Shown piece by piece: positions 6,955 to 22,221 of a stretch of 24,000 bases of DNA. The notes beneath the pieces were generated by a model, which was not told the origin of the DNA, made no database searches, and saw nothing but the letters and a program-made list of their open reading frames with translations. The DNA comes from Erysipelotrichaceae bacterium (lineage in GTDB: Bacteria > Bacillota_I > Bacilli_A > Erysipelotrichales > Erysipelotrichaceae), in NCBI GenBank assembly GCA_900759455.1, contig CAAEVI010000001.1, positions 1,467 through 25,466 of the forward strand. The letters are read 5' to 3'. The first letter of the stretch is position 1; each line of letters opens with the position of its first letter. The position numbers and the translations under genes were made by a program.

Positions 6955-6955
6955 A

Positions 6956-6979
6956 GGCAGAAATTTCTGCCTTTTTTTT
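6956..6979 (+). terminator. Rho-independent terminator after the activator gene
   Basis: The palindrome GGCAGAAA/TTTCTGCC (6956-6971) is followed by T8 (6972-6979). It begins 2 nt after the stop codon. Confidence 0.8.
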
Positions 6980-6993
6980 GCTGTTTTTTTCTA

Positions 6994-7009
6994 TGGCACA
7001 AAATTTGCT
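6994..7009 (+). promoter_or_regulatory. Sigma-54 (-24/-12) promoter of the PTS operon
   Basis: The sequence TGGCAC (6994-6999), aaaat, TTGCT (7005-7009) has the exact GG-to-GC spacing of the consensus TGGCAC-N5-TTGCW. It lies about 40 nt upstream of the EIIA start, with rpoN and a cognate enhancer-binding protein encoded next door. Confidence 0.85.
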
Positions 7010-7049
7010 TGTATTAGGGTGAACGATGGCAAAGGAAGGAGGTAAGAAA

Positions 7050-7460
7050 ATGGCACAAATCATTTTTGCCAGTCATGGTGAGCTTTCCAAGGGAATGAAA
7101 AATTCAGTATCTATGATTGTGGGAGATTTATCCAGTGATGTAGAAACTTTCAGTCTATTTCCCGGGCAAAACCCAAGAGATTATTATCAGCAACTATTGA
7201 AGCGAGTGCAGGAAACAGATGAGCAGTTTATTATTTTGACAGATATCAAAGGAGGCAGTGTTCATACCGCCCTGATGCCTTTGACACAAATGGATAATGT
7301 CATTTTATTGTCAGGAATGAATCTGGTCATGGCCCTGGATGTGTTGCTGAGATATAAAAACAACATAGAACAAAGTGATTTTGATGAATTGCTGCATAGC
7401 GCTAAATCCGGAATCACATTAATGAATTCAATCCAGGATGAGGATGATGAAGATTTTTAG
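7050..7460 (+). CDS. PTS mannose/fructose/sorbose-family EIIA component
   Basis: The N-terminal IIFASHGELSKGMKNS contains the phosphorylatable His of EIIA-Man. I chose ATG 7050, behind GGAAGGAGG, over the upstream in-frame ATG 7026. Confidence 0.85.
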   Translation: MAQIIFASHGELSKGMKNSVSMIVGDLSSDVETFSLFPGQNPRDYYQQLLKRVQETDEQFIILTDIKGGSVHTALMPLTQMDNVILLSGMNLVMALDVLLRYKNNIEQSDFDELLHSAKSGITLMNSIQDEDDEDF

Positions 7461-7481
7461 AAAGTACGGAGGAAAGATAAT

Positions 7482-7949
7482 ATGATCAAATTATTACGAG
7501 TAGATCATCGTTTGCTGCATGGACAAGTGGCTTTTTCTTGGAAGTCTCACGTAGATGCCGACTGTATCTTAATTGCCAACGATGCGGTAATGAAAGATGA
7601 TCTTAGAAAAACATCTATCAAATTAGCAAAACCTGCGGGAACAAAACTTGTTATCAAAAGTATCAAGGATTCGATTGATTCTATTAACAGCGGAGTGACA
7701 GATAAATACAAATTGTTGATTGTTGTTGAATCAATCAAAGATGCCAGTGAATTGATCCATAATTGTGGCATCAGACATTTGAATTTGGGAGGCACCAAAG
7801 CAACAAGTCAAACAAGGAATATTTCAAAGGCTGTGAACATTACAGAAGAAGAAACAGCGATTTTAAAAGATCTGGTAGCCGATGGAGTAGATGTGGAAAT
7901 TCAGATGGTGCCGGATGATGCAGCTGTAAAAGTCGAAAAAGTATTATAG
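7482..7949 (+). CDS. PTS mannose-family EIIB component
   Basis: LLRVDHRLLHGQVAFSW matches the EIIB-Man/Sor active-site signature (D-x-R-L-[IL]-H-G-Q-V). The RBS GGAGGAAAG lies upstream. Confidence 0.9.
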   Translation: MIKLLRVDHRLLHGQVAFSWKSHVDADCILIANDAVMKDDLRKTSIKLAKPAGTKLVIKSIKDSIDSINSGVTDKYKLLIVVESIKDASELIHNCGIRHLNLGGTKATSQTRNISKAVNITEEETAILKDLVADGVDVEIQMVPDDAAVKVEKVL

Positions 7950-7960
7950 GAGGAAGAGAT

Positions 7961-8737
7961 ATGTTTCAAGCAATATTATTAGGTCTTGTAGCGATGATCG
8001 GAAATGCGGAATATCTATTTGGTACATGTTTGCTTTCCAGACCTATCGTTATGGGAACATTGACGGGAATTGTGCTGGGAGATATTCCGACCGGAGTATC
8101 TTTGGGAGCAACACTTGAATTAGCATTTATGGGGGCATTTTCAATCGGGGCAAGCATTCCGCCGGAAATGATTTCCGGAACGGTGTTGGGAACTGCTTTT
8201 ACAATTACGACAGGTGCCGGACCGGAAACAGCATTGACAGTAGGTCTTCCGGTAGCTTCTCTTGTATTGATTGCCAAGAACATCGGAATGGTATTTATTC
8301 TCCCTCCGTTTGTTCATAAAGCGGATGACTATGCGAAACAAGGAAATATGCGCGGAGTAGCTTTGATGCATTTCCTGGGAGGATTCTTCGGTGTCAACTT
8401 GATCATTGGTCTGTGTGTTGGATGCGGTTTCTATGCCGGAGGTTCAGCAGTAGAAGCTCTGCTTAATATGATACCTGACTGGGTAAACAATGGATTGCAA
8501 ATTACAATGGGCTTACTTCCGGCAATCGGATTTGGTCTGTTACTGAAAATGATCATGAACAAGGGACTTGCATGTTTCTTCCTGCTGGGATTTGCATTGT
8601 CAGTATATTTGGAAATCCCTACAACCGGAATAGCCATTTTCGGTGCAATCATCGCCATTGTATTAACACAGTTAAAATCAAATGCGTCTGCACTTAACAC
8701 GCAAGGAGGAGGTTTGGACGAAGATGACGACTTCTAA
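7961..8737 (+). CDS. PTS mannose-family EIIC membrane component
   Basis: The protein is polytopic, hydrophobic and Gly-rich, of the size and composition of ManY/LevF-type IIC. It sits between the IIB and IID genes. Confidence 0.85.
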   Translation: MFQAILLGLVAMIGNAEYLFGTCLLSRPIVMGTLTGIVLGDIPTGVSLGATLELAFMGAFSIGASIPPEMISGTVLGTAFTITTGAGPETALTVGLPVASLVLIAKNIGMVFILPPFVHKADDYAKQGNMRGVALMHFLGGFFGVNLIIGLCVGCGFYAGGSAVEALLNMIPDWVNNGLQITMGLLPAIGFGLLLKMIMNKGLACFFLLGFALSVYLEIPTTGIAIFGAIIAIVLTQLKSNASALNTQGGGLDEDDDF

Positions 8738-9548
8738 TGAGAGAAAACTAACGAAAAAAGAAATTAATAAAGTATTCTGGAGATCCTTTGGTCTGGAGTG
8801 GGACTGGAACTACGAAAGACAAATGAACATGGGCTATTGTTACTGCATGCTGCCGGTAATTGAAAAATTATATCCGAATAAAGAAGATCAAATTGCGGCA
8901 ATGGAACGTCATCTGGAATTCTTCAATACAACGCCTCAGCTTGCAACTTTGATCTTGGGTGTTAGTGCTGCCATGGAGGAAAACAATGCCAATGATCCGA
9001 ATTTCGATACAGAAAGCATCAACAATGTAAAAGTGTCATTGATGGGTCCTCTTGCCGGTATCGGAGATTCCTTTATCTGGGGGACACTTCGTATCATTGC
9101 CACAGGTGTAGGTCTGTCTTTAGCAACTCAGGGAAATATTTTGGGACCGATCCTGTTTTTACTGGTATTCAATATTCCGGCTCAGGGACTTCGCTGGTAT
9201 TTAATGCGCACCGGTTATAAGCTGGGAAGCACATTCCTGACGAAAATTCAGGCTTCCGGATTGATGGATAAGCTAACGTATGGAGCGAGTGTGTTAGGTT
9301 TAATTGTTGTGGGGGCAATGACAGCAGGAAATGTTGTGGTCAATTTCCCTTTAGCATTGGGATCAGGAGATGAAGCAACGACTGTCGGAAACATCTTGGA
9401 TTCTATTATGCCGGGTCTTGCACCGTTGATGTTTACCTTACTTGTTTACTGGCTGCTGAAAAAGAAAAATGTAAAAACAACGACATTATTGCTGATGTGT
9501 GTAGCAATCGGATTAATTGGATCATTCTTTGGAATTTTAGGTGTATAA
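8724..9548 (+). CDS. PTS mannose-family EIID membrane component
   Basis: The IID N-terminal signature is KKEINKVFWRSFGLEWDWNYERQMNMGYCYCMLPVIEKLYP. ATG 8724 follows GGAGGAGG and overlaps the IIC 3' end by 14 nt. The ORF-track start at 8682 is probably too far upstream. Confidence 0.85.
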   Translation: MTTSNERKLTKKEINKVFWRSFGLEWDWNYERQMNMGYCYCMLPVIEKLYPNKEDQIAAMERHLEFFNTTPQLATLILGVSAAMEENNANDPNFDTESINNVKVSLMGPLAGIGDSFIWGTLRIIATGVGLSLATQGNILGPILFLLVFNIPAQGLRWYLMRTGYKLGSTFLTKIQASGLMDKLTYGASVLGLIVVGAMTAGNVVVNFPLALGSGDEATTVGNILDSIMPGLAPLMFTLLVYWLLKKKNVKTTTLLLMCVAIGLIGSFFGILGV

Positions 9549-9561
9549 AAGGAGTATGAAT

Positions 9562-10557
9562 ATGATTAAATTTAATGAACAGGCAAAAATCGACAGTGTG
9601 AACGGAGCATTAGCTCTTCGTCCTAGAATCAATGAAATCGTAGATGAAATTTGCAAAAACGGATATTCCAACATTTGCTGGCTGGGTATCGGCGGAACGT
9701 GGGCCAGCAGCATGCAGGCTACTGTACACATGAAGGAAATCTCTGCAATTGAAACATGGGCAGAAAACGCTGCGGAATATCTAACAACAGGGAACAAACG
9801 TATCACCAAGGACACGGTTGTGGTCATCTCCAGTGTAACGGGAAACACAAAAGAAGTGGTAGATGCTGTAAAAAAAGTAAAAGAAATCGGTGCTCGTGTC
9901 ATTGGATTTGTGGATATTGAAAAAGCTGAACTTCTGGATCTGGCTGACTATAAGATTTCATACCCGATGAACGAACAGTTAAAATTTTTCATGGTAGCAG
10001 ACCGCTTTATGTATAATGCCGGAGAAATGCCGGAATATGATGAAATGTATGCAGAATACGATGCTCATTTGGCTCAGGCATTGGTCGATGTGGAAAAGAA
10101 GGCTGATTCATTCGCGCAGGAATTTGCCAAGAAACACTGGAATGATGAAATGCATTACTTTGTCGGTGCAGGAAATCAGTGGGGAGCTACTTATTCCTAT
10201 GCCATGTGTTATTGGGAAGAACAGCTGTGGTTAAAAACTAAATCTATTACGGCTCCGGAATTCTTCCATGGAATGTTTGAAATTGTTACCAAGGAAACGC
10301 CTGTTACAATCTTCGTAGGAGAAGACAGCCAGCGGCCTCTTTCTGAAAGAGTTGTAAACTTTATTCCTAGAATTTGTGCCAACTATACAGTTATCGATTC
10401 TAAGGATTACGAACTGAAAGGAATTAGCGAAAAATACAGAAAACATTTGTCTCACCATGTGATGCATGCGGTAAACAATCGAATTGACGTTCATATGGAA
10501 ATCGAAACACGCCATCCGATGGAAATCCGCCGCTATTATCGCCGTTTAGAATATTAA
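9562..10557 (+). CDS. SIS-domain sugar-amine-6-phosphate deglycase, FrlB/GfrE-like
   Basis: SIS motifs are present (ICWLGIGGTWASSMQA; VVISSVTGNTKEV; FFHGMFEIV). As I recall it, the C-terminal EIRRYYRRLEY resembles the E. coli FrlB C-terminus (RRYYGGLVEY). The start at ATG 9562 lies 8 nt after AAAGGAG. Confidence 0.7.
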   Translation: MIKFNEQAKIDSVNGALALRPRINEIVDEICKNGYSNICWLGIGGTWASSMQATVHMKEISAIETWAENAAEYLTTGNKRITKDTVVVISSVTGNTKEVVDAVKKVKEIGARVIGFVDIEKAELLDLADYKISYPMNEQLKFFMVADRFMYNAGEMPEYDEMYAEYDAHLAQALVDVEKKADSFAQEFAKKHWNDEMHYFVGAGNQWGATYSYAMCYWEEQLWLKTKSITAPEFFHGMFEIVTKETPVTIFVGEDSQRPLSERVVNFIPRICANYTVIDSKDYELKGISEKYRKHLSHHVMHAVNNRIDVHMEIETRHPMEIRRYYRRLEY

Positions 10558-10561
10558 GATC

Positions 10562-10588
10562 AAGGTGGAGAAATCCACCTTCTTTTTT
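10562..10588 (+). terminator. Intra-operon intrinsic terminator or attenuator between the two SIS genes
   Basis: Stem AAGGTGGA (10562-10569) pairs with TCCACCTT (10574-10581) around loop GAAA, followed by CTTTTTT. The RBS AGGAGG of the next gene comes immediately afterwards. Confidence 0.65.
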
Positions 10589-10599
10589 AGGAGGAAAAT

Positions 10600-11679
10600 A
10601 TGACTAAATATACAATGTTGGATTATGTCAAAGAAGCGCCGGAAGTCGCAAGAAAAAATATTCAACGATATCAGGAACTGGTTGATCCCCTTCTCAGTCT
10701 TATGCAGAAAAGAGAATACCGATCTATCTGGCTGGTTGCTTCCGGTTCCAGTTATAATGCCTGTTTTGCGGCAAGACCTTTTATGCGTAAAGTGTTGAAA
10801 AAGGAAGTAAAGATTATTACTCCCTATACTTTTACTTATTATGAACACGATGTAAAAGATGAAGATCTAGTTTTAGTTGTTACACAAAGCGGGCTGAGTA
10901 CAAATGCCATTGAAGCAATTCAGACTTTAAATAACATGGGACATATTTCCATTTGTTTAACAGGAAACGTGGAAAGTGATGTTAAAAATTATGCAACACT
11001 TGTGTTGGATTATGGTGTAGGTGAAGAACTGGTTGGCTATGTAACAAAAGGAGTTACCAGTTTATGTCTATTTTTAATTTTATTAAGCATTGCTTACGCA
11101 CATCAGGAAGGGTATCTGTCCGAGGTGGAAAAAGCTGTTAATTTAAATGAACAGATGATAGAAAAAACACTTCAGTTCATTCGCACAAATTATAAAGCTC
11201 TCTCTTCCATGAACTGGGTATACTCGATTGGAGCAGGTTCGAACTATGGGACAGCTTTGGAAAGTGCCTTGAAGATGGGAGAAACAATTCATATTCCAAG
11301 CTGTGCCTATGAAATTGAAGAATATATCCATGGTCCAAATCTTCAGTTGACACCGCAATACAATGTTTTTATCTATGATGAGAACGATGAAGCGTCAACG
11401 CGTGTGGAACAAATTTATAAAGCAACTTCTAAAGTGACAGATCGTGTATTCATGATCAGCGCCAATAAGAATTTTAAAAATGATAAGCGTGTAATTGTTC
11501 TGGAAGATGCTCCGCTTCCTGAGTTGTGTGCATTGGTATATCTTCCATTTGTTCAACTGGTTAGCTTTGTTATCTCGGACGAAACACACCGTATCAAGCA
11601 ACATCCGTTAATGAAGGAGTTTAAAACAATTGCTGCTGCTAAGACAGAAAACTTTGTGAATTATGATGAAGATGATTAA
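10600..11679 (+). CDS. Double-SIS-domain sugar-phosphate isomerase/deglycase, GlmS-isomerase/GfrF-like
   Basis: SIS motifs are SIWLVASGSSYNACFAARPF, LVLVVTQSGLSTNAIEA and ALKMGETIHIPSCAYEIEEYIHGPNLQL. The protein is 359 aa. Confidence 0.7.
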   Translation: MTKYTMLDYVKEAPEVARKNIQRYQELVDPLLSLMQKREYRSIWLVASGSSYNACFAARPFMRKVLKKEVKIITPYTFTYYEHDVKDEDLVLVVTQSGLSTNAIEAIQTLNNMGHISICLTGNVESDVKNYATLVLDYGVGEELVGYVTKGVTSLCLFLILLSIAYAHQEGYLSEVEKAVNLNEQMIEKTLQFIRTNYKALSSMNWVYSIGAGSNYGTALESALKMGETIHIPSCAYEIEEYIHGPNLQLTPQYNVFIYDENDEASTRVEQIYKATSKVTDRVFMISANKNFKNDKRVIVLEDAPLPELCALVYLPFVQLVSFVISDETHRIKQHPLMKEFKTIAAAKTENFVNYDEDD

Positions 11680-12328
11680 GGCGGTTATTTTTGATATGGA
11701 TGGTTTGATGTTTGATACAGAAAGACCATATATAGACTTATTGGTAAAAATATGCCGGGAAAGAAATTTAAATTTTCCGACAGAATATGTTCGAGAGCTG
11801 ATCGGAGTAAGCTCGGTTACGGTGGAAAAATATGAAAATAATTATCCCGGGATCATAGAAGCAATGAATCAGGTCGATAGAGATTATGATGATTATTTCT
11901 TTTCTTTATATCCGACGCCGGGAAGCGCAAATAAAAAAGGTTTGGAAGAACTTTTTGACTATCTTAATAAAAACGGGTATAAAAAAGCGATTGCTTCGAG
12001 TTCAAGAGAAAGACATATTAAAAATTTGGTACGATATTCAAATGTGGATATGAAATTAGATGCAATCGTATCAAGTCACAGTGATTTTCCTTCGAAGCCG
12101 GATCCTGCAGTCTTTATAGAAGCAGCAAAAAGGCTGGATGTGAATCCTGATGAATGTCTCGTGTTGGAAGACAGCAAATATGGAATTATGGCCGCTAATA
12201 GGGCAGGTATGCATAGAGTATGGATTCCGGACATGATAACGGATAGTTCCGATTTTCAGGATAATCTGGAATTCAAATGTAATGACCTATCTGAAGTGAT
12301 TTCTATATTAGAAACAGCATTATCTTAA
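11663..12328 (+). CDS. HAD-superfamily phosphatase, subfamily IA (beta-phosphoglucomutase-like)
   Basis: Motif I is VIFDMDGLMFDTE, motif II is AIASSS, and motifs III/IV are K...LVLEDSKYGIMAANRAGM. The start overlaps the 3' end of the preceding gene. Alternative ATGs lie at 11666 and 11672. Confidence 0.8.
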   Translation: MMKMIKAVIFDMDGLMFDTERPYIDLLVKICRERNLNFPTEYVRELIGVSSVTVEKYENNYPGIIEAMNQVDRDYDDYFFSLYPTPGSANKKGLEELFDYLNKNGYKKAIASSSRERHIKNLVRYSNVDMKLDAIVSSHSDFPSKPDPAVFIEAAKRLDVNPDECLVLEDSKYGIMAANRAGMHRVWIPDMITDSSDFQDNLEFKCNDLSEVISILETALS

Positions 12329-12468
12329 ATGAGATGTATTATGAGTGATACTATAGTTATGACGATTATAAGAAAAACCGGTTAAATTGTTTTACTTTCA
12401 AAAGGTTGCAGAAACAAAAATGATAAAGTAAGATTATGTTCTTTATCGATCATTCGTATAGTAAAAAA

Positions 12469-12493
12469 GCAGAATCATTTTCTGCTTTTTTTT
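12469..12493. terminator. Bidirectional-looking Rho-independent terminator closing the sigma-54 PTS operon
   Basis: Stem GCAGAA (12469-12474) pairs with TTCTGC (12480-12485) around loop TCATT. It is flanked by A6 upstream and T8 downstream. Confidence 0.7.
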
Positions 12494-12857
12494 GAGATAA
12501 TTATATGTTGAAGGTGATCTTCCGTATGAGTGATTGTTGTAATGTGATAAGCATGTCGTTTTTCTTATAAGGTCTGTTTGGTCATAAGAATCTATCGTTC
12601 AAAATAAACATAGTAAATATTGAAGGTTTTTTATCCATGAGAGAGCCTAACTCTGTATACTATATAGATAATGAGAAACAAGGATATTAAGTAATATTTT
12701 ATTTCACTGGAAAAGTATATATTATATAATTTTCTAATGTAAAAGGGGATTAAATATTATTTAGTTTATTCCTTATTATATAGTGAATTGTCCATTAATG
12801 AAATCATATGTGTTAAAATAAATAAAGCTTAGATAATGTGAGTATTGAGGTGTTTAG

Positions 12858-14750
12858 ATGCTGATTTATGAAGGAACAAAGGATAATTTTTTAATGAGTG
12901 TAGAGCAAGATACAATTGCAGTAGAAATAGAGAACAATATTTATGAAAGAATGCATCGCCATACAGCGAAAAATGAATTTCGTGCATGGGAAAATTCTAT
13001 GGAATACATGTATAAGGTTTTGAATGATCGAGAGATTCCGTCGGATGCGGGGATTGCTATAGAGTATAATATTCCACAGACATCTAAACGGGTGGATTTT
13101 TTAATATCGGGGTATGGAAAAAAAGAAAGTGCTAATATTGTTTTAATTGAATTAAAACAATGGGATGAACTGGAGGCGATTCCAGGACGGGATGGTCTGG
13201 TAGAAACGTACACCGGAAATGCTTTAAGACAAGTTGTACATCCATCTTATCAGGCGTGGTCATACGCAATGCTAATTAGTGATTATAATGCTTCTGTGCA
13301 GGAAGGAATGGTATCCATTCGCCCTTGTGCATATTTACATAACTACAGACGACATGATCAAGACCCGCTTGATGCTGAGCAGTATGCAATTTATCTCGAA
13401 GATGCCCCGACGTTTACACGTGGGGAAGTTACTAAGTTAAGAGAATTTATTAAGAAAAACATACAAACAGGGGATAATAAAGAATTGATTTATAAGATTG
13501 ATTCAGGTCGCATCAAGCCTTCGAAAAGCCTTCAAGATTCCATTGCAAAAATGTTGAAAGGTAACCGTGAGTTTATCATGTTGGATGAACAAAAAGTTAT
13601 TTATGAAGAAGTCTTAAATGAAGCAAGGCAATCCGTTAAAGATGAAAAAAAGAGGGTTTTAATTATCAAAGGAGGACCGGGAACCGGTAAAAGTGTTGTC
13701 GCAATTAATCTGCTTGCCCAATTAACAAAAGAAGATCAGTTTTGCCAGTATGTATCAAAGAATTCGGCACCGAGAAATGTGTATCGCAAAAAATTAAAAG
13801 GAAGTATTAGGAAAAGCAGTGTTGATAATATGTTTAAAAGCTCAGGTGTTTATACTGAAACTGAAAGTAATATGATTGATACGATTCTTGTAGATGAAGC
13901 ACATCGATTAAATGAAAAATCAGGAATGTTTCATAACATAGGAGAGAATCAGATTAAGGAAATCATTCATTCGGCAAAATGCAGTGTATTCTTTATTGAC
14001 GAAAGTCAAAGGGTTACACTTCAAGATATAGGTCGAATCTCAGAGATAAAAAAATGGGCAGAAAAAGAAAATGCACGGGTAAAAGAAATGGAATTGGCAT
14101 CACAGTTCAGGTGTAACGGCTCAAATGGATATCTAGCATGGTTGGATCACATATTGCAAATTCGGGATACTGCCAACTATGATATGGAAGGAATAGATTA
14201 TGAAATCCGGATTATTGATTCTCCAAAAGAAATGCAGGAATTAATTGTTGATAAAAATCGCATTTCAAAAAATAAAGCAAGAATTTTAGCAGGTTATTGT
14301 TGGGACTGGAAAAAAGAAGGTGTAAATGATACCTCAGTACACGATATCATAATTGATGATTTTGAGATTAGCTGGAATTTAAAAAATACAACTACTTTTG
14401 CGATAGATGATGATTCTATCAATGAAGCAGGATGTATCCATACTTCCCAAGGATTAGAATTTGATTATGTGGGGGTTATTATTGGTAATGACATGCGTTA
14501 TGAAAATGGAAAAATCATTACAGACTTTACAAAAAGAGCAAAAACAGATCAATCATTGAAAGGTATAAAAAAATTATATAAAGAAAATCCAGAGTTTGCG
14601 AAAAAAGAAGCAGATGAAATTATAAAAAACACATATCGTACATTGATGACACGTGGTATGAAAGGTTGTTATGTATATTGTACAGATTCTCAGCTGTCTG
14701 ATTACTTTAAGGAATGTTTGAAGATACAAAAAAGTGAGGATAAGAAATGA
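12858..14750 (+). CDS. DUF2075 / Schlafen-group-3-type P-loop helicase with an N-terminal PD-(D/E)xK-like nuclease motif
   Basis: The N-terminal region reads E69...D80(RVDFLISG)...E98-L-K100(LIELKQW), a D-x(n)-ExK pattern. Walker A is GGPGTGKS (K278; nt 13671-13694) and Walker B is ILVDEAHRL (nt 13893-13904). The DUF2075-typical segments FFIDESQ and SQFRCNGSNGYLAWLD are present. SF1-like C-terminal motifs are CIHTSQGLEFDYVGVIIG and YRTLMTRGMKGCYVY. The RBS is GAGGTG. Confidence 0.8.
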   Translation: MLIYEGTKDNFLMSVEQDTIAVEIENNIYERMHRHTAKNEFRAWENSMEYMYKVLNDREIPSDAGIAIEYNIPQTSKRVDFLISGYGKKESANIVLIELKQWDELEAIPGRDGLVETYTGNALRQVVHPSYQAWSYAMLISDYNASVQEGMVSIRPCAYLHNYRRHDQDPLDAEQYAIYLEDAPTFTRGEVTKLREFIKKNIQTGDNKELIYKIDSGRIKPSKSLQDSIAKMLKGNREFIMLDEQKVIYEEVLNEARQSVKDEKKRVLIIKGGPGTGKSVVAINLLAQLTKEDQFCQYVSKNSAPRNVYRKKLKGSIRKSSVDNMFKSSGVYTETESNMIDTILVDEAHRLNEKSGMFHNIGENQIKEIIHSAKCSVFFIDESQRVTLQDIGRISEIKKWAEKENARVKEMELASQFRCNGSNGYLAWLDHILQIRDTANYDMEGIDYEIRIIDSPKEMQELIVDKNRISKNKARILAGYCWDWKKEGVNDTSVHDIIIDDFEISWNLKNTTTFAIDDDSINEAGCIHTSQGLEFDYVGVIIGNDMRYENGKIITDFTKRAKTDQSLKGIKKLYKENPEFAKKEADEIIKNTYRTLMTRGMKGCYVYCTDSQLSDYFKECLKIQKSEDKK

Positions 14751-15094
14751 ACAAGGAAACAATAGAGAAGGTCTTAAAATTCAGAGATGATCGGAACTGG
14801 AAACAGTTTCATAACCCGAAAGATTTAGCAGTCTCCATTAGTTTGGAAGCGGCAGAACTGCTTGAGGTATTTCAGTGGAGTGCAGATGATGTCTGGTGTA
14901 AAGAGAAACAGGATAAAATCCGAGAAGAACTGGCAGATGTGTTGAATTACTGTATTTTAATGGCAGATACTTGTGGATTAGATATGGATGAAATTATATT
15001 GGAAAAGGTAAAGAAAAATGCTGAAAAATATCCGATAGAAAAAGCTTATGGACATAAGGAAAAATATACTGAGCTAACAAAAGAAAAAAACTGA
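14747..15094 (+). CDS. MazG-like all-alpha NTP pyrophosphohydrolase, DCTPP1/RS21-C6 type
   Basis: FRDDRNWKQFHNPKDLAVSISLEAAELLEVFQW closely follows the DCTPP1 pattern (F..ERDW.QFH.P.NL...L..E.GEL.E.FQW). The EXXE (E34/E37) and EXXD (E61/D64) metal motifs are intact. The start overlaps the upstream stop (ATGA, 14747-14750). Confidence 0.8.
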   Translation: MNKETIEKVLKFRDDRNWKQFHNPKDLAVSISLEAAELLEVFQWSADDVWCKEKQDKIREELADVLNYCILMADTCGLDMDEIILEKVKKNAEKYPIEKAYGHKEKYTELTKEKN

Positions 15095-15141
15095 TATTTC
15101 ATTAAAATATATTAAAACAGTATTTTAAACGAGGTGGTGAA

Positions 15142-15990
15142 ATGAGCTTTAAAGATCAGACATCAAAAGATGACAAAGGGAAGGCGTTTTCTGCTGAGCA
15201 GGTCATTGTTTTTCCCGGGATTGAAAACTTAAAAAAAGAAGTGGAGAAAATGCGTACGGAGCTGTCTATGCTTTTATTGGAGCGGGATGAGTTGCTGCTT
15301 GTGATTTGTCCGAATATTGAAACTGATTATATGTTGAAATTAGGAAATATCGAATATAAGGCCTATGAAGCAATGTGTGCCATGCTTCGTTTAAAACGTA
15401 AGATCGAACTGCTTCAGGCAAAAAGAAACAGACAGGAAAACATTGTTCTCATTGATATTGAGAAAGTGTTGGATGAAGAGTTCGTCGAATATCAGAGACA
15501 GTTGGAAGAACAGTTGAACAAAATGAATGAAGCACTACACCGAAGCCGTTTAGAGGCTTTGTCACAGGAAGATACACGGGAGCTTAAAAAGCTTTACCGC
15601 AAAATCATGAAGCTGTTACATCCGGATCTCAATCCAGGTCTTTCGAAATCAAAAACAGAATTGTTTCATCATGCGGTCAGTGCCTATAAGAACGGCGATC
15701 TGGATACGCTACGCATGATCTTTGAAATGGTTGGAGATGATCCGCTGCCAGAGCTGAAAAGTGACGCAATGACACAGCTGACAGAAGAAAAAGAACGTTT
15801 GAAGGATTTGCTGAAATCAATCACAGACAGCATCGAAAAGATAAAGTCAAGCTATCCGTATACCTTGAAAGAACTTCTTGAAGATGAAAAGCAGATAAAA
15901 GAAAAGAAGCAGGAATCTGAAGATATTTTGAAGCAGTATCAGGAAATGATCGCGCTTTATAAAAGAAGGATCGAAGAGATACTGAGGTGA
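15142..15990 (+). CDS. Coiled-coil protein with an internal J-domain (DnaJ-like, HPD motif)
   Basis: LKKLYRKIMKLLHPDLNPGLSKSKTELFHHAVSAYKNGDLDTL matches J-domain helix II, HPD and helix III (HPD at nt 15619-15627; aa 160-162). The flanking regions have heptad-like charged sequence. The RBS is GAGGTGG. Confidence 0.7.
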   Translation: MSFKDQTSKDDKGKAFSAEQVIVFPGIENLKKEVEKMRTELSMLLLERDELLLVICPNIETDYMLKLGNIEYKAYEAMCAMLRLKRKIELLQAKRNRQENIVLIDIEKVLDEEFVEYQRQLEEQLNKMNEALHRSRLEALSQEDTRELKKLYRKIMKLLHPDLNPGLSKSKTELFHHAVSAYKNGDLDTLRMIFEMVGDDPLPELKSDAMTQLTEEKERLKDLLKSITDSIEKIKSSYPYTLKELLEDEKQIKEKKQESEDILKQYQEMIALYKRRIEEILR

Positions 15991-15994
15991 TGAG

Positions 15995-16390
15995 ATGAAT
16001 GATATTGTAGAATCTCAAAGTAGTGTCTTGGCTGCACTGCATGGAAAAAACGGGGAAATCTCTTTGCCGAAGCCTTTTGAAAGAAATATTTTCCTGTTTG
16101 ATACCTATGTGGCCGGAACGACACATATTGAGGGAATGGAAGAATTGGAGCCCGCTCTACAGATTGAAGACAAACTATCGTTTTTCAGAGAACCGGATAA
16201 TCGCTTTGATGATCAGGCCATTGTGATCAAAACAATGGACGGTGTAAAAATCGGTTATATTCCCCGGCAGGATAATGTTATCTTTGCGCGGTTGATGGAT
16301 GCCGGAAAACTGTTGTTTGGAAAGATTTCCTCAAAGGAAATCATAGGTTCCTGGGTAAAGATCGGAATCAAAGTATATTTGCATGAATAA
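15995..16390 (+). CDS. Stand-alone HIRAN-domain protein
   Basis: The sequence FDTYVAGTTHIEG...LSFFREPDNRFDDQAIVIKTMDGVKIGYIPRQDNVIFARLMDAG fits the HIRAN pattern (VAG..y...L.L.REP.N..D.nAI.V....g..IGYiPr..a..la.lmD.g). The start lies 4 nt after the upstream stop, behind GAGGTGA. Confidence 0.75.
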   Translation: MNDIVESQSSVLAALHGKNGEISLPKPFERNIFLFDTYVAGTTHIEGMEELEPALQIEDKLSFFREPDNRFDDQAIVIKTMDGVKIGYIPRQDNVIFARLMDAGKLLFGKISSKEIIGSWVKIGIKVYLHE

Positions 16391-16393
16391 AGA

Positions 16394-16427
16394 AGAAACG
16401 CTTGTGAAAGATGAGCGTTTCTTTTTT
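16394..16427 (+). terminator. Rho-independent terminator closing the four-gene cassette
   Basis: A 9-bp stem AGAAACGCT (16394-16402) pairs with AGCGTTTCT (16414-16422) around an 11-nt loop, and runs into a T-tract (to 16427). Confidence 0.8.
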
Positions 16428-16551: not shown

Positions 16552-16577
16552 GGATTCAACAAAGAGGAGTGAAGACA

Positions 16578-18440
16578 TTGAAGCAAAGACAACTGAAGGT
16601 CATTCAACTATTATTGGAAAATAAAGAATATCTTTCAGCCAAAACATATGCAAATCTTCTGGGTATCTCCGAAAAATCTTTTAGAAGAGATTTAGAGGAA
16701 TTAGAACCGTTTTTCAAGAAGTATGATGCAGAGGTAATAAAAAAAATCGGCGTCGGTGTTCTGCTTGAAGTTGACCCCCAGCAGCGCATTTTGCTGAATG
16801 CGGAAATAGAAAAACTGGTGTGGATCGACAAGGAAAAAGAATTCCATTCATTAAACGGAACGAATCGAAAGAAAGATATGCGGCTAAATTTACTGTTAAG
16901 CGCAGGAGAGATTTACAGTGTTTCGCAAATCGCCGCAAGCTACTACTTAAGCAAATCATCGGCTTACCATGATTTACAGATGGTGGAAAATTTCTTTAGG
17001 GAACATGACCTTACCATTGAAAAAGGAACAAAGGGAAGCTGCATCCAAGGGAATGAATTTACCATACGAAAACTGATCATAAATGAATTGATCCGATATG
17101 AACAGTTTTATGATTTCTTTACACTTCAGTTCAATTTTGAATTGATCTCGGCAGGACTAATACAGAAACTGAAATCTTTATTTGTCGAAGAAGACATAAG
17201 AGAACTGACAAAACTGATCGAAGAAAAGAACAGACAGTTCATCCATCCGCTGACAAACGAAGAAAAGAACTGGATGTTTACCGCATTGCTGATACAGATT
17301 TACAGGATACGAATGAACCACATGATCAATGCATCCAATCAGTCACGGAAGGCCTTGTTAGAGTATGAATCCGATCTTTCGAATGCATGTATACAAGTGA
17401 TGAAAAAACAGACAAACCGCAAACTGACGATTGAAGAAATTACATATATTCACTGGGTATTATCGACATTAAGTCTGAATGATCATCCGCAAAGGGAACG
17501 ACAGAATATCGAAAATGTCGCAGAGGAGTTCACAAACGATTTCGTTGATGCTTTTTCCGCAATTACCGGTTTAAGCTTACGGAACAAACAAAGCTTTTAT
17601 CAGAATATTTCCCAGCATATCTTTTTCATGATTTCCAGAGTCGTGAACGGCCAGCGCTTTAAAAATCCGATCCTGGACAAGATGAGAAATGAATATCGGG
17701 CGATGGAAAAGGTTTGCAGCATCATTTGCTGGATCTTGGCAAAAAAACATGGAACCAGCTGTATAAACGACGACGAGATCAGTTATCTGATGTTGTATAT
17801 TCAGGGGGAAATTATAGATCTGGAACCCAAAATGAATACCCTTGTGATCTTCGATCTACAGAAAAGCTTACAGTCGTTATTTCAGATTCAGCTATCGAAG
17901 CGGTTTCCTAATCTGAATGTCACGTTTACAGATAATGACGGAGGAAAAAATCTGCCTGAATATGATCTGATCATCAATACAAAGTCGATGAAAAACAAAC
18001 TGCAGGAAGCCAATCGAATAGCGATTTCACCGATATTAACAGAAAGTGATTTTGATTTGATCGATGAAACAATTACAAAGATCATTTCCAACCGGAATGA
18101 CAATTACTTGGAATTAAGTCGGATATTAAATGACTTAAAAGATATCGGTGTGGAAATAATGATCAATTCAACAGCCGTCAGTGTTGAAAAACAAAAAAAG
18201 GATCATCTGGTTGTCATTGGTACATATGGATGGGAATATCATTACAGTTTTTCAGATCAGTACAGCAACAAATGCCTGATTTTTACGGAAGATATACAGG
18301 CACAGAAAAATGTAATTTATTTTTACATGAGTAATTGGGATTTCCTGTTGTTTTCAACAAAGCTTGTATACCTGATTGAAAACAGCACGAAACAGATCGT
18401 GAATTATTTCAGACAATATCTAATAGAGGAGTGGAGCTAA
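16578..18440 (+). CDS. PRD-domain transcriptional activator of the MtlR/ManR/LicR type (HTH, Mga-like, 2x PRD, degenerate EIIB/EIIA-like C-terminus)
   Basis: The N-terminal HTH reads KQRQLKVIQLLLENKEYLSAKTYANLLGISEKSFRRDLEEL. The central helical region is PRD-like with conserved His (YIHWVL, SQHIFFMISR). The C-terminal 200 aa resemble EIIB-Gat/EIIA-like regulatory domains. There is no ATG near the 5' end. TTG 16578 lies 8 nt after GAGGAG (16564-16569), and GTG 16569 is the alternative. The stop is 1 nt before the next start. Confidence 0.7.
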   Translation: MKQRQLKVIQLLLENKEYLSAKTYANLLGISEKSFRRDLEELEPFFKKYDAEVIKKIGVGVLLEVDPQQRILLNAEIEKLVWIDKEKEFHSLNGTNRKKDMRLNLLLSAGEIYSVSQIAASYYLSKSSAYHDLQMVENFFREHDLTIEKGTKGSCIQGNEFTIRKLIINELIRYEQFYDFFTLQFNFELISAGLIQKLKSLFVEEDIRELTKLIEEKNRQFIHPLTNEEKNWMFTALLIQIYRIRMNHMINASNQSRKALLEYESDLSNACIQVMKKQTNRKLTIEEITYIHWVLSTLSLNDHPQRERQNIENVAEEFTNDFVDAFSAITGLSLRNKQSFYQNISQHIFFMISRVVNGQRFKNPILDKMRNEYRAMEKVCSIICWILAKKHGTSCINDDEISYLMLYIQGEIIDLEPKMNTLVIFDLQKSLQSLFQIQLSKRFPNLNVTFTDNDGGKNLPEYDLIINTKSMKNKLQEANRIAISPILTESDFDLIDETITKIISNRNDNYLELSRILNDLKDIGVEIMINSTAVSVEKQKKDHLVVIGTYGWEYHYSFSDQYSNKCLIFTEDIQAQKNVIYFYMSNWDFLLFSTKLVYLIENSTKQIVNYFRQYLIEEWS

Positions 18441-18441
18441 T

Positions 18442-18846
18442 ATGGAAACAAAATTGATGATAGTTACACATGGCACATTAGGAAAGTCATTACTTGAAAC
18501 CTCATCCTTGATCGTAGGGGAACAGAGGAATGTAGAAACTTATGGAGTTGATCTAGGATGTGATGTGGAAAAGTTGAAAAATGAAATCAGACAATCCTTA
18601 AAAGAGTCATTTGACAAAGGGCAGTCTGTAATCGTATTGACGGATATTTTCTACGGTACCCCTTTTAATGTCGTGGTTTCTCTGATGGAAGATTATGATT
18701 TTATGCATATTACCGGTATCAATTTATCAATCGTACTGGAAATATTGCTAAAGCGAAATGAGATAAAAGAACAGGATATCGACGAAGTGATTGAAGAAGC
18801 CAAAAAATCAATGATTAATTGTCGCAAGTTTTTAATTGAGGAATAA
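18442..18846 (+). CDS. PTS mannose-family EIIA component (second system)
   Basis: LMIVTHGTLGKSLLETSSLIVG is the EIIA-Man His signature. The 134-aa protein has the right size. Confidence 0.85.
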   Translation: METKLMIVTHGTLGKSLLETSSLIVGEQRNVETYGVDLGCDVEKLKNEIRQSLKESFDKGQSVIVLTDIFYGTPFNVVVSLMEDYDFMHITGINLSIVLEILLKRNEIKEQDIDEVIEEAKKSMINCRKFLIEE

Positions 18847-18865
18847 CAGAAAGGAGGTGCTTGTG

Positions 18866-19342
18866 ATGAAAAACGTTTTAATAACAAGAATTGATGACCG
18901 TCTGATTCACGGACAAGTAGTAACAGCATGGATCAAAGTTTATCCGATCAACAAAATCTTAATTATTGATGATGAATTATCAAAAAATAAGTTGATGACG
19001 AGAATTTACCGTGCTGCCGCTCCGGCAGGAGTCGAGGTGATTCTGAAAGGTTTGGATGATGCACTTCATTATTTGCATGAAGAACCGGAAAAAGGAGAAA
19101 ACGTAATGATTTTGGTTAAGGTGCCTGAAATCATTGAAGCAATCATTGATAGCGGCTTTACAGTAAATAAAGTGATCTTAGGAGGAATGGGCGCATCTGA
19201 AAAGAGGAAACGATTCAATCGTAATATTTCGGCAAGTGAAAGTGAAATTGAATCTTTCAGAAGAATTGTTGAAAAGGGAATTGAAATTGTTTATCAGCTG
19301 GTTCCAAACGATCGTGAAATGAACATTCGGGATTTGCTATAG
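18866..19342 (+). CDS. PTS mannose-family EIIB component (second system)
   Basis: The active-site signature ITRIDDRLIHGQVVTAW is present. ATG 18866 follows AAAGGAGG (18851-18858). Confidence 0.9.
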   Translation: MKNVLITRIDDRLIHGQVVTAWIKVYPINKILIIDDELSKNKLMTRIYRAAAPAGVEVILKGLDDALHYLHEEPEKGENVMILVKVPEIIEAIIDSGFTVNKVILGGMGASEKRKRFNRNISASESEIESFRRIVEKGIEIVYQLVPNDREMNIRDLL

Positions 19343-19355
19343 GAGGAGGATTGTT

Positions 19356-20969
19356 ATGAGTTTACTGCAAGGGATTTTATTAGCATTTCTATATTATTTA
19401 GGCAACAGTACATGGGGCTTAGGCGTCGGTTGGTGGACTTTGATGCGTCCGTTGGTGCTTGGGTTTATTTCGGGAATCATTCTCGGTGATCCGGCCCAGG
19501 GAACCATCGTGGGTGCACAGATCAATGTGCTTTATCTGGGCTTTATTGGTGCAGGCGGTGCCTTGCCGGGCGATATTGCCTTAGCTGGCGTTGTCGGAAC
19601 GGCCATTGCATTATCAACGGGTGTAGATGTAAATACAGCTATGTCACTGGCAGTTCCTGTAGGTCTGCTAGGTACGATCATCTGGGTCATGAAGATGACC
19701 GTCAATACCGCATGGGTACGTTTTGCGGAAAAATATGCGGATAGCGGAAACACAAAGAGTTTCTGGATCGCCGATGTAGTCATGCCGCAGCTGTTTCTGT
19801 TCATCGTAAGTTTTATTTCCTGCTTTGTTATCGTATATTTCGGTGTTTCGTATATTAAGGATATACTGGATTTCCTTGGTGACAATGTAGTAGGCGTATT
19901 ATCCACGATTGGCGGAATGCTGCCTGCAGTAGGTATTGCCCTGACATTAAAATCAATCTTCAAAGCAGAATCGATTCCTATGTTCTTTTTGGGATTTATG
20001 CTAGTACAGTATTTTGGTTTAGACATGATTGCCACAGGCTTCCTGTCTCTGGTCTTTACTGTTATCTATATGCAGCTCAAAACAAAGGAAGGAGAAGAAC
20101 CTTTACTTGCCGGTTTTGATCATAATGTGGAAGGTCAGACAAGCTATGTACTGCTTGATAAAAAGACAATTAAAAAATCCTGGTTCAGATGGATCATGTT
20201 TAACCAGGCAAATTATAACTATGAGCGTATGCAGGGAACCGGATTCTGTCATGCCATGCTTCCGATTATAGATAAACTGTATCCAGATGATGCGGAAAAG
20301 AGAAGAGAACGCATGAAACTTCATATGAATTTCTTTAACACAGAACCGCAGTGGGGAGCTTGTATTATTGGTCTGACAGCTGCATTGGAAGAGAAAAAAG
20401 CACAGGGTTCGGATGAGGAAATCAGTGATGAGATGATCACCTCTATTAAGTCAAGCTTGATGGGACCTCTTGCGGGTATTGGCGATACCATTGACGGCGG
20501 AGTCATAACACCTTTACTGCTTACATTATTTATCGGTATTTCACAGACAGGAAACTTATTGGGACCGATCGGCTACATTATCGTTGAGGCATGTATCATG
20601 TGGTCTATTTACTGGTTTTCTTACAAACTGGGTTATGAAAAGGGATCAGATGCCATCGTGAATTTACTTGAAAGCGGGAAAATCAATAAACTGATCTTAG
20701 GTGCTTCTATCATGGGATGTATGGTACTTGGCGGACTGGTTGGAAATTTCGTTACATTTAAGACTGGATTGACATTTGATGTTGGAGGAGATGCACCGTT
20801 TGTTTTACAGGAACAGTTGTTTGATGTGATCCTGCCTGGCATGCTTCCATTATTGCTGACATTAGGATGCTATTGGTTAATAACGAAGAAAAATGTTTCT
20901 TCTGTTAAAGTAATCTTGTTGATCTTTGTTTTAGGCTTAGTCGGCGGATTGTTGGGCATTTTTGCTTAA
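19356..20969 (+). CDS. Fused PTS mannose-family EIIC-EIID permease
   Basis: The N-terminal ~245 aa are collinear with the separate IIC encoded at 7961-8737 (same G-rich TM pattern). After the hydrophilic linker KTKEGEEPLLAGFDHNVEGQTS comes KKSWFRWIMFNQANYNYERMQGTGFCHAMLPIIDKLYP, which is the IID N-terminal signature seen in the gene at 8724. The whole 537 aa are a single uninterrupted ORF. Confidence 0.85.
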   Translation: MSLLQGILLAFLYYLGNSTWGLGVGWWTLMRPLVLGFISGIILGDPAQGTIVGAQINVLYLGFIGAGGALPGDIALAGVVGTAIALSTGVDVNTAMSLAVPVGLLGTIIWVMKMTVNTAWVRFAEKYADSGNTKSFWIADVVMPQLFLFIVSFISCFVIVYFGVSYIKDILDFLGDNVVGVLSTIGGMLPAVGIALTLKSIFKAESIPMFFLGFMLVQYFGLDMIATGFLSLVFTVIYMQLKTKEGEEPLLAGFDHNVEGQTSYVLLDKKTIKKSWFRWIMFNQANYNYERMQGTGFCHAMLPIIDKLYPDDAEKRRERMKLHMNFFNTEPQWGACIIGLTAALEEKKAQGSDEEISDEMITSIKSSLMGPLAGIGDTIDGGVITPLLLTLFIGISQTGNLLGPIGYIIVEACIMWSIYWFSYKLGYEKGSDAIVNLLESGKINKLILGASIMGCMVLGGLVGNFVTFKTGLTFDVGGDAPFVLQEQLFDVILPGMLPLLLTLGCYWLITKKNVSSVKVILLIFVLGLVGGLLGIFA

Positions 20970-20979
20970 GGAGGACAGT

Positions 20980-22221
20980 ATGATCATTCAATTTGACGAA
21001 AAGTATAAATCATTTCCGAAGGAAGAATATGAGCTTCATGTAGAAAAGCTTCAGACAGAAATGAAAAAGATGAATCTGGATTTACTGTTACTGACAAGTC
21101 CTGAAAATATCTACTATTCTACAGGTTATCGTTCCTGGTATACTTCAAGCCTGTTTCGTCCGGTATATGTGCTTGTTCCGTTGGAAGGTGATCCAGCTGT
21201 CATCTTACGTATTCTGGAGAAAAGCACGGTAAAGTTTACAAGCTGGACATCTAATGTCTTTGTGTCAGGAACAAAAGCGAGAAATATCGGATATTTGGAT
21301 GCGGAAAGCCATATCGAGGCTACAAAAAAGGCGATTGACCAGATTGCCCCGTCTGCCAAAACGATCGGTATCGAAAAAGCAGACGGCTGTCAGTTCTTCT
21401 GGTCTCTTCAGATGCTGGAAGATTTTGCGCAAAAATATCCGCAATATGAATTTGTAGACGGGACATTGGCATTTCAACGTGCCAGAATGATCAAAACATC
21501 GTGGGAGATCGAGAAGATCCGAAGCGTTTGTTATATTACCGAAAAGGCAATTGAAGAAACATTTGCCATGGTGCGTCCGGGACAGACAACAGAAAAAGAG
21601 ATAGCAAGGAGCATTGCCTCTAAGATGGCAGCTGACGGAGTAGATAAATTCTCATATTTAACTGTAACCAGCGGCATTCAGAAATATACAACGTTGAATG
21701 CGTATGCGACAGATCGAATCGTTCAGTTCGGAGAATTGCTTCTTGTGGACATCAGCGGTCATATCGACGGTTATGCATCTGATTTGACCAGAATGATGTA
21801 TTTAGGAAATGAAATACCGAAAGATATTTATGACATGGCAAAAGCCAGCAGTGACTGTGTGATCGCAGGGAAAGAATATATGAAACCGGGAAGAAAAATC
21901 GGGGCTTTAAATAAAACGATTGAAGATACGCTGCGAAATGCAGGTTACAGCGATTATGTCATTCATTCCAGCGGTCATTGTGTCGGGCTGAATGTAGTTG
22001 AATATCCTACTATTTATGATGAAAGCGATGTTATGTTAGAACCGGGAATGGTATTTGCGGTCGAAAACGGTGTATACCCATTTGATAAAGAAGATGGTGC
22101 GGAAAATATGCATCTGGCGTTCAGAATGGAGGATGAAGTACTGGTAACCGAACATGGATCTGAATGGATAACAGGCCCAGGAAAAGCAATCTATTGCTTA
22201 AAGGATTTTAAGCAAAAATAA
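20980..22221 (+). CDS. M24-family metallopeptidase (Xaa-Pro aminopeptidase/prolidase-like, with a creatinase-type N-domain)
   Basis: The pita-bread-fold metal ligands are all present: D/D in LLLVDISGHIDGYASDLTRM, H in HSSGHCVGL, E in FAVENGVY, and E in MEDEVLVT. The start ATG 20980 follows AAGGAGGA. Confidence 0.8.
   Translation: MIIQFDEKYKSFPKEEYELHVEKLQTEMKKMNLDLLLLTSPENIYYSTGYRSWYTSSLFRPVYVLVPLEGDPAVILRILEKSTVKFTSWTSNVFVSGTKARNIGYLDAESHIEATKKAIDQIAPSAKTIGIEKADGCQFFWSLQMLEDFAQKYPQYEFVDGTLAFQRARMIKTSWEIEKIRSVCYITEKAIEETFAMVRPGQTTEKEIARSIASKMAADGVDKFSYLTVTSGIQKYTTLNAYATDRIVQFGELLLVDISGHIDGYASDLTRMMYLGNEIPKDIYDMAKASSDCVIAGKEYMKPGRKIGALNKTIEDTLRNAGYSDYVIHSSGHCVGLNVVEYPTIYDESDVMLEPGMVFAVENGVYPFDKEDGAENMHLAFRMEDEVLVTEHGSEWITGPGKAIYCLKDFKQK

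Follow-up and report, generated by a model that had tools for sequence, protein, structure and literature searches.

Nuclease-helicase immunity (Nhi; Staphylococcus epidermidis SERP2475; Bari et al. 2022) and the Nhi-like protein (Millman et al. 2022) have both been validated as defences in which a single protein acts against phages, and both are encoded near other defence genes; the Nhi-like protein has no sequence identity to Nhi. The HIRAN proteins HipN and HipL belong to HipA-family kinase modules, in which the HIRAN domain has been proposed to sense the DNA ends of invading phages and to keep a partner protein under control. The HIRAN domain of HLTF binds free 3′-OH DNA ends, and those of prokaryotes have been called uncharacterised. 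For bNACHT25, a bacterial NLR-related protein, host DnaJ is reported to mediate phage sensing (PLoS Biol 2025, PMC12169576). Here we analysed a 24,000-nucleotide (nt) stretch of contig CAAEVI010000001.1 from an Erysipelotrichaceae bacterium, referred to below as the window. At 12858–16390 it carries a cassette of four plus-strand genes encoding a predicted nuclease–helicase (g1), a MazG-like protein (g2), a J-domain protein (g3) and a HIRAN protein (g4), which an earlier note on this DNA had proposed as a candidate integrated defence or DNA-conflict system. We conclude, with a probability of about 0.7, that the cassette arose when two modules of two genes each, independent of one another, horizontally mobile and belonging to the gene pool of defence islands, were joined in one lineage.

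Co-occurrence of the four genes

Module A comprises g1 (12858–14750, 630 amino acids (aa)) and g2 (14747–15094, 115 aa), and module B comprises g3 (15142–15990, 282 aa) and g4 (15995–16390, 131 aa). A scan of one genome per species yielded 80 loci with g1 orthologues of 62–88% identity, mostly from Lachnospiraceae and also from Erysipelotrichaceae, Treponema, Fibrobacter, Oxalobacter and Bifidobacteriaceae. The g2 gene adjoined g1 in 60 of the 75 assessable species loci (56 downstream, 4 upstream), lay elsewhere in the locus in 2/75 and was absent from 13/75 despite room on both sides of g1. Relatives of g3 or g4, at 26–53% identity, were located within 8 kb of g1 in only 3 of the 80 loci and never adjoined it. 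The scan from the g3 side used an alignment that included distant versions of the protein and covered 80 metagenome loci (29–68% identity, 682 kb in total). A HIRAN gene lay directly 3′ of the g3 relative in all 69 assessable loci, nearly always after a gap of 4 nt, and both g1 and g2 were absent from all 80 loci.

Because co-occurrence within each pair (60/75 and 69/69) stands against co-occurrence between the pairs (3/80 and 0/80) from both sides, the cassette is better read as two modules than as one. The earlier note had itself taken a lack of co-conservation as grounds for abandoning an integrated system, and that proposal is therefore unsupported; its fallback of two gene pairs holds, each pair being strongly co-conserved on its own. 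The four-gene arrangement was recovered solely in the window's own lineage, on at least 22 human-gut contigs with the same flanking sugar phosphotransferase system (PTS) operons. The closest relatives of g1 and g2 (88% identity, from Drancourtella and allies) are followed instead by genes for HNH_4, S-adenosylmethionine (SAM) methyltransferase, Nmad3, a small open reading frame (ORF), DUF3427 and NUDIX proteins. Base composition changes at the same boundary, with 34.4% GC in g1 and 35.1% in g2 compared with 39.6% in g3, 40.4% in g4 and 39% in the flanks, a step that fits a separate origin for each half. The low-GC accessory region described in the earlier note is thus confined to g1 and g2 (34–35%), the other two genes (40%) resembling their surroundings. 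An empty site in the window's species was sought by exact look-up of the HAD and SIS proteins encoded in the flank and of a g3 with 96% identity, and all informative contigs had the cassette. For genome scans, the lesson is that a tidy operon need not be a system, as cross-genome co-occurrence splits this one in two.

Within the window, the two modules probably form one operon, transcribed from a promoter in an AT-rich leader and ending at a single terminator after g4, as judged by the gene junctions. The ORFs and the two bracketing intrinsic terminators proposed earlier were recovered. The leader (12329–12857, plus strand) separates the upstream PTS/SIS/HAD operon from g1 and, at 529 bp and 25.9% GC, is as long and AT-rich as the 530 bp claimed for it. 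The terminator of the upstream operon (12469–12493; hairpin of −13 kcal/mol, z −3.7, followed by a T-run) lies inside the leader, within its first third, leaving a usable leader of about 364 nt. The best promoter-like site, TTCACT-16-TATAAT (12703–12730, plus strand; 10/12 match in a promoter scan), falls in this remainder. Genes g1 and g2 share an ATGA overlap, g3 and g4 are 4 nt apart and 47 nt separate the modules (15095–15141), all as the earlier note had read them. Neither a stable hairpin (fold −6.4 kcal/mol, z −0.65) nor, in a simple consensus scan, a plus-strand promoter-like site was found in this 47-nt junction, which is why a single transcription unit is favoured; its 3′ end carries the conserved module B ribosome-binding site, AACGAGGTG. 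The closing terminator (16394–16427, plus strand; −21.9 kcal/mol, z −5.8, followed by a T-run) lies 3′ of g4. A simple terminator scan missed both terminators, and Rfam gave no match in the leader or the cassette.

The cassette is wedged between two sugar-PTS operons, as previously noted, and both are of the mannose family, one with a sigma-54/LevR-type and the other with a PRD/Mga-type regulator. The upstream flank (2372–12328) contains rpoN on the minus strand, a LevR-type sigma-54 activator, mannose-PTS EIIA to EIID, two SIS-domain proteins and a HAD phosphatase. Downstream of the cassette (16569–22221) are the PRD/Mga regulator, EIIA, EIIB, a fused EIIC–EIID protein and an M24 peptidase; the fused protein (537 aa) is unusual. 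In one strain (locus L182) whose g1 is 99% identical to that of the window, the AT-rich leader that runs from the HAD gene to g1 is interrupted by an insertion sequence (IS) element with a gene for a 587-aa rve-family transposase (4798–6561 of that locus, corresponding to about 12500–12850 of the window); the element may alter expression of the cassette.

The predicted nuclease–helicase and its MazG partner

The g1 protein combines an N-terminal domain (aa 1–262, 12858–13643, plus strand), which carries a PD-(D/E)xK-type motif (E69, D80 and E98-x-K100), with a superfamily 1 (SF1) helicase/DUF2075 domain (aa 265–610, 13650–14687, plus strand), which carries Walker A K278 and Walker B D346-E347. 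The helicase domain matches PF09848 over the entire model (positions 1–354 of 354) at 2e-104 and 350 bits (cut-off 24), and this full-length match together with both Walker motifs places g1 in the Schlafen group-3/DUF2075 family. Residues E69, D80, E98, K100, Q101, K278 and D346-E347 were invariant in 83 sequences of 40–88% identity, among them D80, E98, K100 and K278, the presumed catalytic residues that the earlier note had chosen for mutation. The motif residues follow one another as they would in a putative PD-(D/E)xK nuclease. A profile of the N-terminal domain had no match in the PDB, and a phmmer search of the PDB with g1 returned only spurious P-loop matches, to RecA. The AlphaFold2 model was poor (mean predicted local distance difference test (pLDDT) score of 34) because the depth of its alignment was too low (15 sequences, at least 84% identical). 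All matches of g1 to PADLOC models were partial (PDC-S41, 7.7e-19; AbiO, 6.6e-17; Nhi, 3.4e-16). It is not a member of PDC-S41 (65 bits; best stretch aa 362–615, model positions 392–630 of 657) or of the Nhi model (57 bits; aa 236–443 only, model positions 178–352 of 470).

The g2 protein matches the MazG-like family PF12643 at 2.7e-24 (85.7 bits, cut-off 27), placing it among MazG-like/DCTPP1 proteins; like the PF09848 match, this had been anticipated. Its sequence matches in the PDB include 4QGP (1.8e-21) and mouse and human DCTPP1 (3.7e-19), and E34, E37, E60, E61 and D64 were conserved in at least 95% of 60 orthologues, E34 and E37 being the residues that the earlier note had chosen for mutation. 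It is thus a predicted DCTPP1/RS21-C6-type MazG nucleoside-triphosphate pyrophosphohydrolase. DCTPP1 is a house-cleaning enzyme.

The pairing of g1 with g2 is kept at 39–50% identity on plasmids of Halalkalicoccus and Priestia, with the genes in one order or the other. Its conservation reaches from Lachnospiraceae to a haloarchaeal plasmid, and at 50–57% identity module A is spread across phyla and into archaea. Past g2, the neighbourhoods are hypervariable. A DUF3427 PLD-helicase, matching the PADLOC type IV restriction model mREase_IV at 8.9e-203, is a recurrent neighbour, as are a TOTE AEP-helicase-PLD protein, an HNH_4 protein, a mad2-like methyltransferase, NUDIX, Fic/PDC-S04 and Y-family polymerases. 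On the Priestia plasmid, the g1 relative occurs with MazG, restriction–modification, ABC-3C and DUF3578 genes. An association of DUF2075 with a DUF3427 restriction enzyme was remarked on in 2019; no paper describing DUF2075 or Nhi-like proteins with a MazG partner was found in a literature search that was thin on subscription journals.

Two further arrangements of module A relatives were observed. In Drancourtella sp. An12 and relatives (L183–L186), the fullest loci comprise nine co-oriented genes in the order DinG-like helicase, g1 orthologue, MazG, HNH_4, SAM methyltransferase, Nmad3, small ORF, DUF3427 type IV enzyme and NUDIX, which may represent a larger modification-centred conflict island around module A. 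A plasmid of Hymenobacter canadensis carries two DUF2075 paralogues in tandem (L094, 5001–8987) but no MazG beside them; upstream of the paralogues are genes for a BPTD_3080-family restriction endonuclease, a DNA methyltransferase and DUF4747.

The J-domain and HIRAN pair

The g3 protein has an N-terminal long helix or coiled coil (aa ~25–135), an internal J-domain (aa ~138–200, 15553–15741) with the HPD tripeptide at aa 160–162 (15619–15627), and a C-terminal coiled coil after the J-domain. The match to DnaJ PF00226 scored 25.4 bits, under the Pfam gathering cut-off of 27.8, and relatives of g3 scored 19.6–26.2 bits. H160-P161-D162 and the helix-II residues were invariant down to 26% identity. 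A profile of g3 searched against the PDB gave 16 matches, all 16 to J-domains on the HPD segment (best E 0.0034). The AlphaFold2 model (mean pLDDT 79) was all-helical, with the long N-terminal helix followed by a helix at 142–159, the HPD loop, helices at 169–183 and 187–197, and C-terminal helices. The protein thus has the HPD tripeptide between helices II and III and the helix layout of a J-domain, bearing out the earlier assignment despite the sub-threshold Pfam score. A Foldseek search of the PDB with the whole g3 model returned coiled-coil noise only and nothing at E ≤ 0.001. The family is sizeable, with 2,214 clusters at 50% identity (E ≤ 1e-3).

The g4 protein is a standalone HIRAN protein (domain at aa 33–130, 16091–16384, plus strand) whose ribosome-binding site lies inside the 3′ end of g3. 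The expected match to PF08797 was obtained at 7.5e-16 (58.2 bits, cut-off 24.7; model positions 2–94 of 96), which places g4 in the HIRAN family. In the PDB it matches 3K2Y, a bacterial standalone HIRAN protein, at 4.1e-8, and the HLTF HIRAN domain marginally (~0.07). A description of the J-domain/HIRAN pair was not found in the literature search, thin as it was on subscription journals, and module B appears to be an undescribed, widespread and well-delimited pair.

The borders of module B are sharp. In an alignment of nine contexts, homology sets in with the ribosome-binding site, about 15–20 nt 5′ of the g3 start, and a junction alignment shows that it stops at the g4 stop codon. As the homology spans only this interval, module B carries neither a promoter nor a terminator, and the terminator at 16394–16427 is, by this alignment, local to the present locus and outside the conserved cassette. 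The gene upstream of module B was co-oriented with it in 56 of 57 loci and belonged to more than 10 different families. The gap to most partners was 15–63 nt, and some were longer, such as 201 nt after a type III Res gene; in the window, module B follows the same rule, 47 nt behind module A. Upstream partners included type I HsdR (E=0), McrB/McrC, type III Mod/Res and BnzB (1e-103) with PDC-M09A (2.6e-70), as well as WYL regulators, an AAA15/AriA-like ATPase and a GajB-like UvrD helicase. Of 54 loci, 38 had one or more labelled defence families within five genes of module B, a minimum count given that singleton ORFs carried no annotation.

A prophage or phage anti-defence origin was considered for the cassette and rejected: g3 is absent from 50,697 phage records, four of which contain g1, and module B was found in 2 of 2.9 million IMG/VR contigs. 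The module B pair was likewise absent from these phage records and from 72,556 plasmid records.

Variants of module B were observed in several loci. In three clusters of long g3-family proteins (P0248, P0249 and P0256), an N-terminal ADP-ribosylglycohydrolase domain (PF03747, up to 2e-66) is joined to the J-domain/coiled-coil part and the HPD motif is kept, which suggests a link between module B and the reversal of ADP-ribosylation; a search of viral contigs for the context of this fusion returned a stand-alone ADP-ribosylglycohydrolase. At L133 (7569–8789), a g3 homologue is joined in one ORF to an N-terminal DUF1810 domain (4e-55) and is followed by HIRAN. In a divergent version of module B (L174, 6834–10298; L175, 6622–10263), the HIRAN protein is about 400 aa long with a C-terminal extension of about 270 aa (weak DUF1653), and the pair is preceded by an AsnC-type helix-turn-helix regulator and a 135-aa RNA polymerase alpha C-terminal-domain protein. 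A three-gene variant (L034, 1284–3336; L053, 15914–17854; L189, 3–1707) has a Sel1/TPR protein of about 300 aa directly upstream; its J-domain proteins are distant (26–28% identity) and the HIRAN partner is present. No classical effector (nuclease, pore or NADase) was added in any of these variants, whether with Sel1/TPR, ADP-ribosylglycohydrolase or DUF1810 fusions or with extended HIRAN.

Genes that follow the pair were also recorded. In L085–L087 (~9769–11317), a DUF3990 gene, a 138-aa ORF and a NADAR gene lie directly 3′ of the J-domain/HIRAN pair, and these ADP-ribose-related neighbours are possibly a toxin–antitoxin pair. A 276-aa protein with a weak GIY-YIG match (0.0027) follows HIRAN in L104 (9216–10043) and relatives (family F28), and a 290-aa protein without a Pfam match does so in L096 (9855–10739; family F17). 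Genes of these two types start 13–25 nt past the HIRAN stop codon, and module B may thus have additional partners in its operons. Genes for Y-family (ImpB/MucB) polymerases, frequently accompanied by XRE-type regulators, recur a few genes from both modules (g1 loci L005, L025 and L029; g3 loci L097, L100, L102, L104, L106, L112 and others), where they could mark a mobile-element cargo region or a link to DNA damage.

Competing explanations and comparison with known systems

The genomic context of both halves supports a defence or DNA-conflict role, as had been proposed for the cassette as a whole. By analogy with Nhi, module A may be a variant of Nhi-type defence with a MazG partner that edits the deoxynucleoside triphosphate (dNTP) pool. 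The g1 nuclease–helicase would most probably attack replicating foreign DNA, and the MazG protein would most probably hydrolyse dCTP or base-modified dNTPs, either starving phage replication or removing the modified nucleotides that let phages escape restriction. Removal of modified nucleotides fits module A in particular because its neighbours elsewhere are modification-dependent restriction, NUDIX and nucleotide-modification genes. In the mechanism that is most likely for module B, HIRAN would bind free 3′ DNA ends, the coiled-coil g3 protein would bridge to HIRAN, and the HPD J-domain would recruit and fire host Hsp70 (DnaK) at that place. The outcome could be a defence switch, or the remodelling or recycling of nuclease motors stalled at DNA ends. 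We tentatively propose, although as distinctly less likely than not, that the J-domain/HIRAN pair is a novel, promoterless plug-in cassette at the 3′ ends of restriction and nuclease operons that couples 3′-end recognition to Hsp70 recruitment, acting as an abortive switch or in the release or restraint of motors.

Several observations weigh against the reading of the cassette as two mobile defence modules, or against parts of it. MazG was not found beside g1 in 13 of the 75 loci and is therefore dispensable for some g1 relatives. The nuclease fold of g1 is read from its motifs, and g1 is no Nhi member at the sequence level, the PADLOC Nhi match being to the helicase core and the PDC-S41 match being partial. 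The J-domain score of g3 lies below the Pfam threshold, and neither g3 nor g4 has a recognisable effector enzyme. Many g3 loci come from related human-gut Lachnospiraceae, such that the 80 loci correspond to about 15–20 independent architectures. The location of both modules in defence islands is guilt by association, and the Y-family polymerases and ADP-ribosylglycohydrolase fusions would also fit a role in DNA damage or repair.

A single system of four proteins, with HIRAN as the sensor, the nuclease–helicase as the effector, MazG as the modifier of the nucleotide pool and the J-domain protein as a chaperone-dependent switch, would account for the one apparent transcription unit with its tight junctions and for an arrangement that at least 22 contigs, drawn from different samples of the human gut, have in common. 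Module B, moreover, always lies behind some defence gene, mostly one for an ATP-dependent nuclease, helicase or ATPase, and might cooperate with whichever it follows. Such a system is nonetheless very unlikely: co-conservation is lacking (3/80 and 0/80), each pair occurs alone in the other loci examined, the nearest g1 and g2 relatives have other downstream genes, the halves differ in GC and the adjacency is seen in the window's own lineage only. That the adjacency is an accident of island assembly without functional consequence, with some of the genes decaying passengers, is barely credible. The lineage-specific gene order and the IS element in the leader of one strain would suit it, but all four ORFs are intact, their catalytic or signature residues are conserved and the cassette is ~99–100% identical across many samples.

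Two other explanations concern what the modules do. Module B could be a portable accessory, with no defence activity itself, to an upstream ATP-dependent nuclease or translocase (HsdR, McrBC, type III Res, UvrD-like or, here, DUF2075), in which HIRAN would find the ends that these enzymes make or stall on and DnaK, brought in by the J-domain, would set the enzymes free, recycle them or keep them in check, as in autoimmunity control or restriction alleviation. The absence of a conserved promoter or terminator from the cassette agrees with this, as do the co-oriented upstream gene (56/57) from more than 10 families at gaps down to 15 nt, the identity of the recognised upstream partners, mostly DNA-dependent ATPases or nucleases, and the lack of an effector domain in g3 and g4. 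The explanation is rather doubtful all the same, since WYL regulators, Bunzi/PDC-M09-like genes and genes for small unknown proteins, which are neither nucleases nor motors, also occur upstream, another gene starts 13–25 nt after the pair in several contexts, so that the pair is not always terminal, and strong co-orientation is common in Firmicutes. Alternatively, one or both modules could help the host or a mobile element to tolerate DNA damage or to sanitise the nucleotide pool, rather than acting against phages, with HIRAN and the J-domain protein acting at stalled forks or ADP-ribosylated DNA and MazG in house-cleaning. The HIRAN domain of HLTF acts in fork reversal, and this family knowledge, together with the house-cleaning role of DCTPP1, speaks for such a function; so do the recurrence of Y-family polymerase cassettes with XRE regulators near both modules, the three g3-family clusters fused to ADP-ribosylglycohydrolase and the DUF3990 and NADAR genes that follow module B in L085–L087. 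Both modules, however, are patchily distributed, cross phyla horizontally and reside in hypervariable neighbourhoods rich in restriction and defence genes, unlike core repair genes, and the predicted architecture of g1 matches that of validated anti-phage proteins; we therefore consider a damage-tolerance role unlikely. Two modules of the defence-island gene pool, joined in one lineage, remain the preferred reading.

Among described systems, module A comes closest to Nhi and Nhi-like proteins, in which, as in g1, a predicted N-terminal PD-(D/E)xK-type motif is followed by an SF1 helicase overlapping DUF2075/PF09848. The earlier statement that no named system has this composition accordingly stands for module B, of which no description was found, but not for the predicted architecture of g1, which has these validated precedents. 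In contrast to them, g1 has a dedicated MazG partner in most species, and it matches the PADLOC Nhi and AbiO models over the helicase core only (57–59 bits, aa 236–443). The pairing suggests that Nhi-type nuclease–helicases commonly work with a DCTPP1-like pyrophosphohydrolase, and module A would thus link direct attack on foreign DNA to nucleotide-pool editing, possibly against phages with modified bases.

Like the DCTPP1/RS21-C6 enzymes, to which it can be aligned (mouse and human DCTPP1, 3.7e-19), the g2 protein has the acidic residues that bind metal. Manipulation of the nucleotide pool is reportedly an established bacterial defence strategy (Tal et al. 2022), implemented by dCTP deaminase and dGTPase. 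Unlike DCTPP1 and such dNTP-depleting defences, g2 is a minimal enzyme of 115 aa that is the partner of a nuclease–helicase and not a stand-alone effector. The literature found on 'MazG-like' proteins is, by title and abstract, mostly concerned with phage genomes or phage anti-defence.

Module B is the more interesting half: it is sizeable, obligately paired and located inside restriction and defence operons of abundant human-gut bacteria. Its g4 protein resembles HipN and HipL, whose modules are probably the PADLOC candidate PDC-M03, in being a small bacterial HIRAN protein, and it matches PDC-M03B, apparently the HipS–HIRAN antitoxin of HipA-like kinases, at 1e-13. This match covers the HIRAN half alone (model positions 125–217 of 250), without the HipS-like domain, and g4 is therefore no member of PDC-M03. 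Neither an M03A match nor a HipA-like kinase was found in g1, g2 or g3, and the partner of g4 is instead a J-domain coiled-coil protein without a PADLOC match. With HLTF/Rad5, g4 shares the domain family (PF08797, 7.5e-16), but it stands alone, with no SWI/SNF motor attached, and its match to HLTF is marginal (E ~0.07). If the plug-in reading is true, it would provide the first function for prokaryotic stand-alone HIRAN proteins, and the ADP-ribosylglycohydrolase fusions hint at a further link of module B to conflicts over ADP-ribosylation of DNA or protein.

Finally, bNACHT25 reportedly offers a precedent for Hsp70 co-chaperone machinery in anti-phage sensing. An understanding of module B would give prokaryotic HIRAN proteins a role and reveal whether Hsp70 is tied into bacterial immunity by J-proteins dedicated to that purpose. 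On the same plug-in reading, module B would be the first case of a bacterial immune component that is dedicated to recruiting a chaperone and linked to the sensing of DNA ends. The bNACHT25 system reportedly pairs a housekeeping DnaJ with a NACHT effector, whereas the protein encoded here is a dedicated, divergent, island-encoded J-protein paired with a predicted DNA-end binder.

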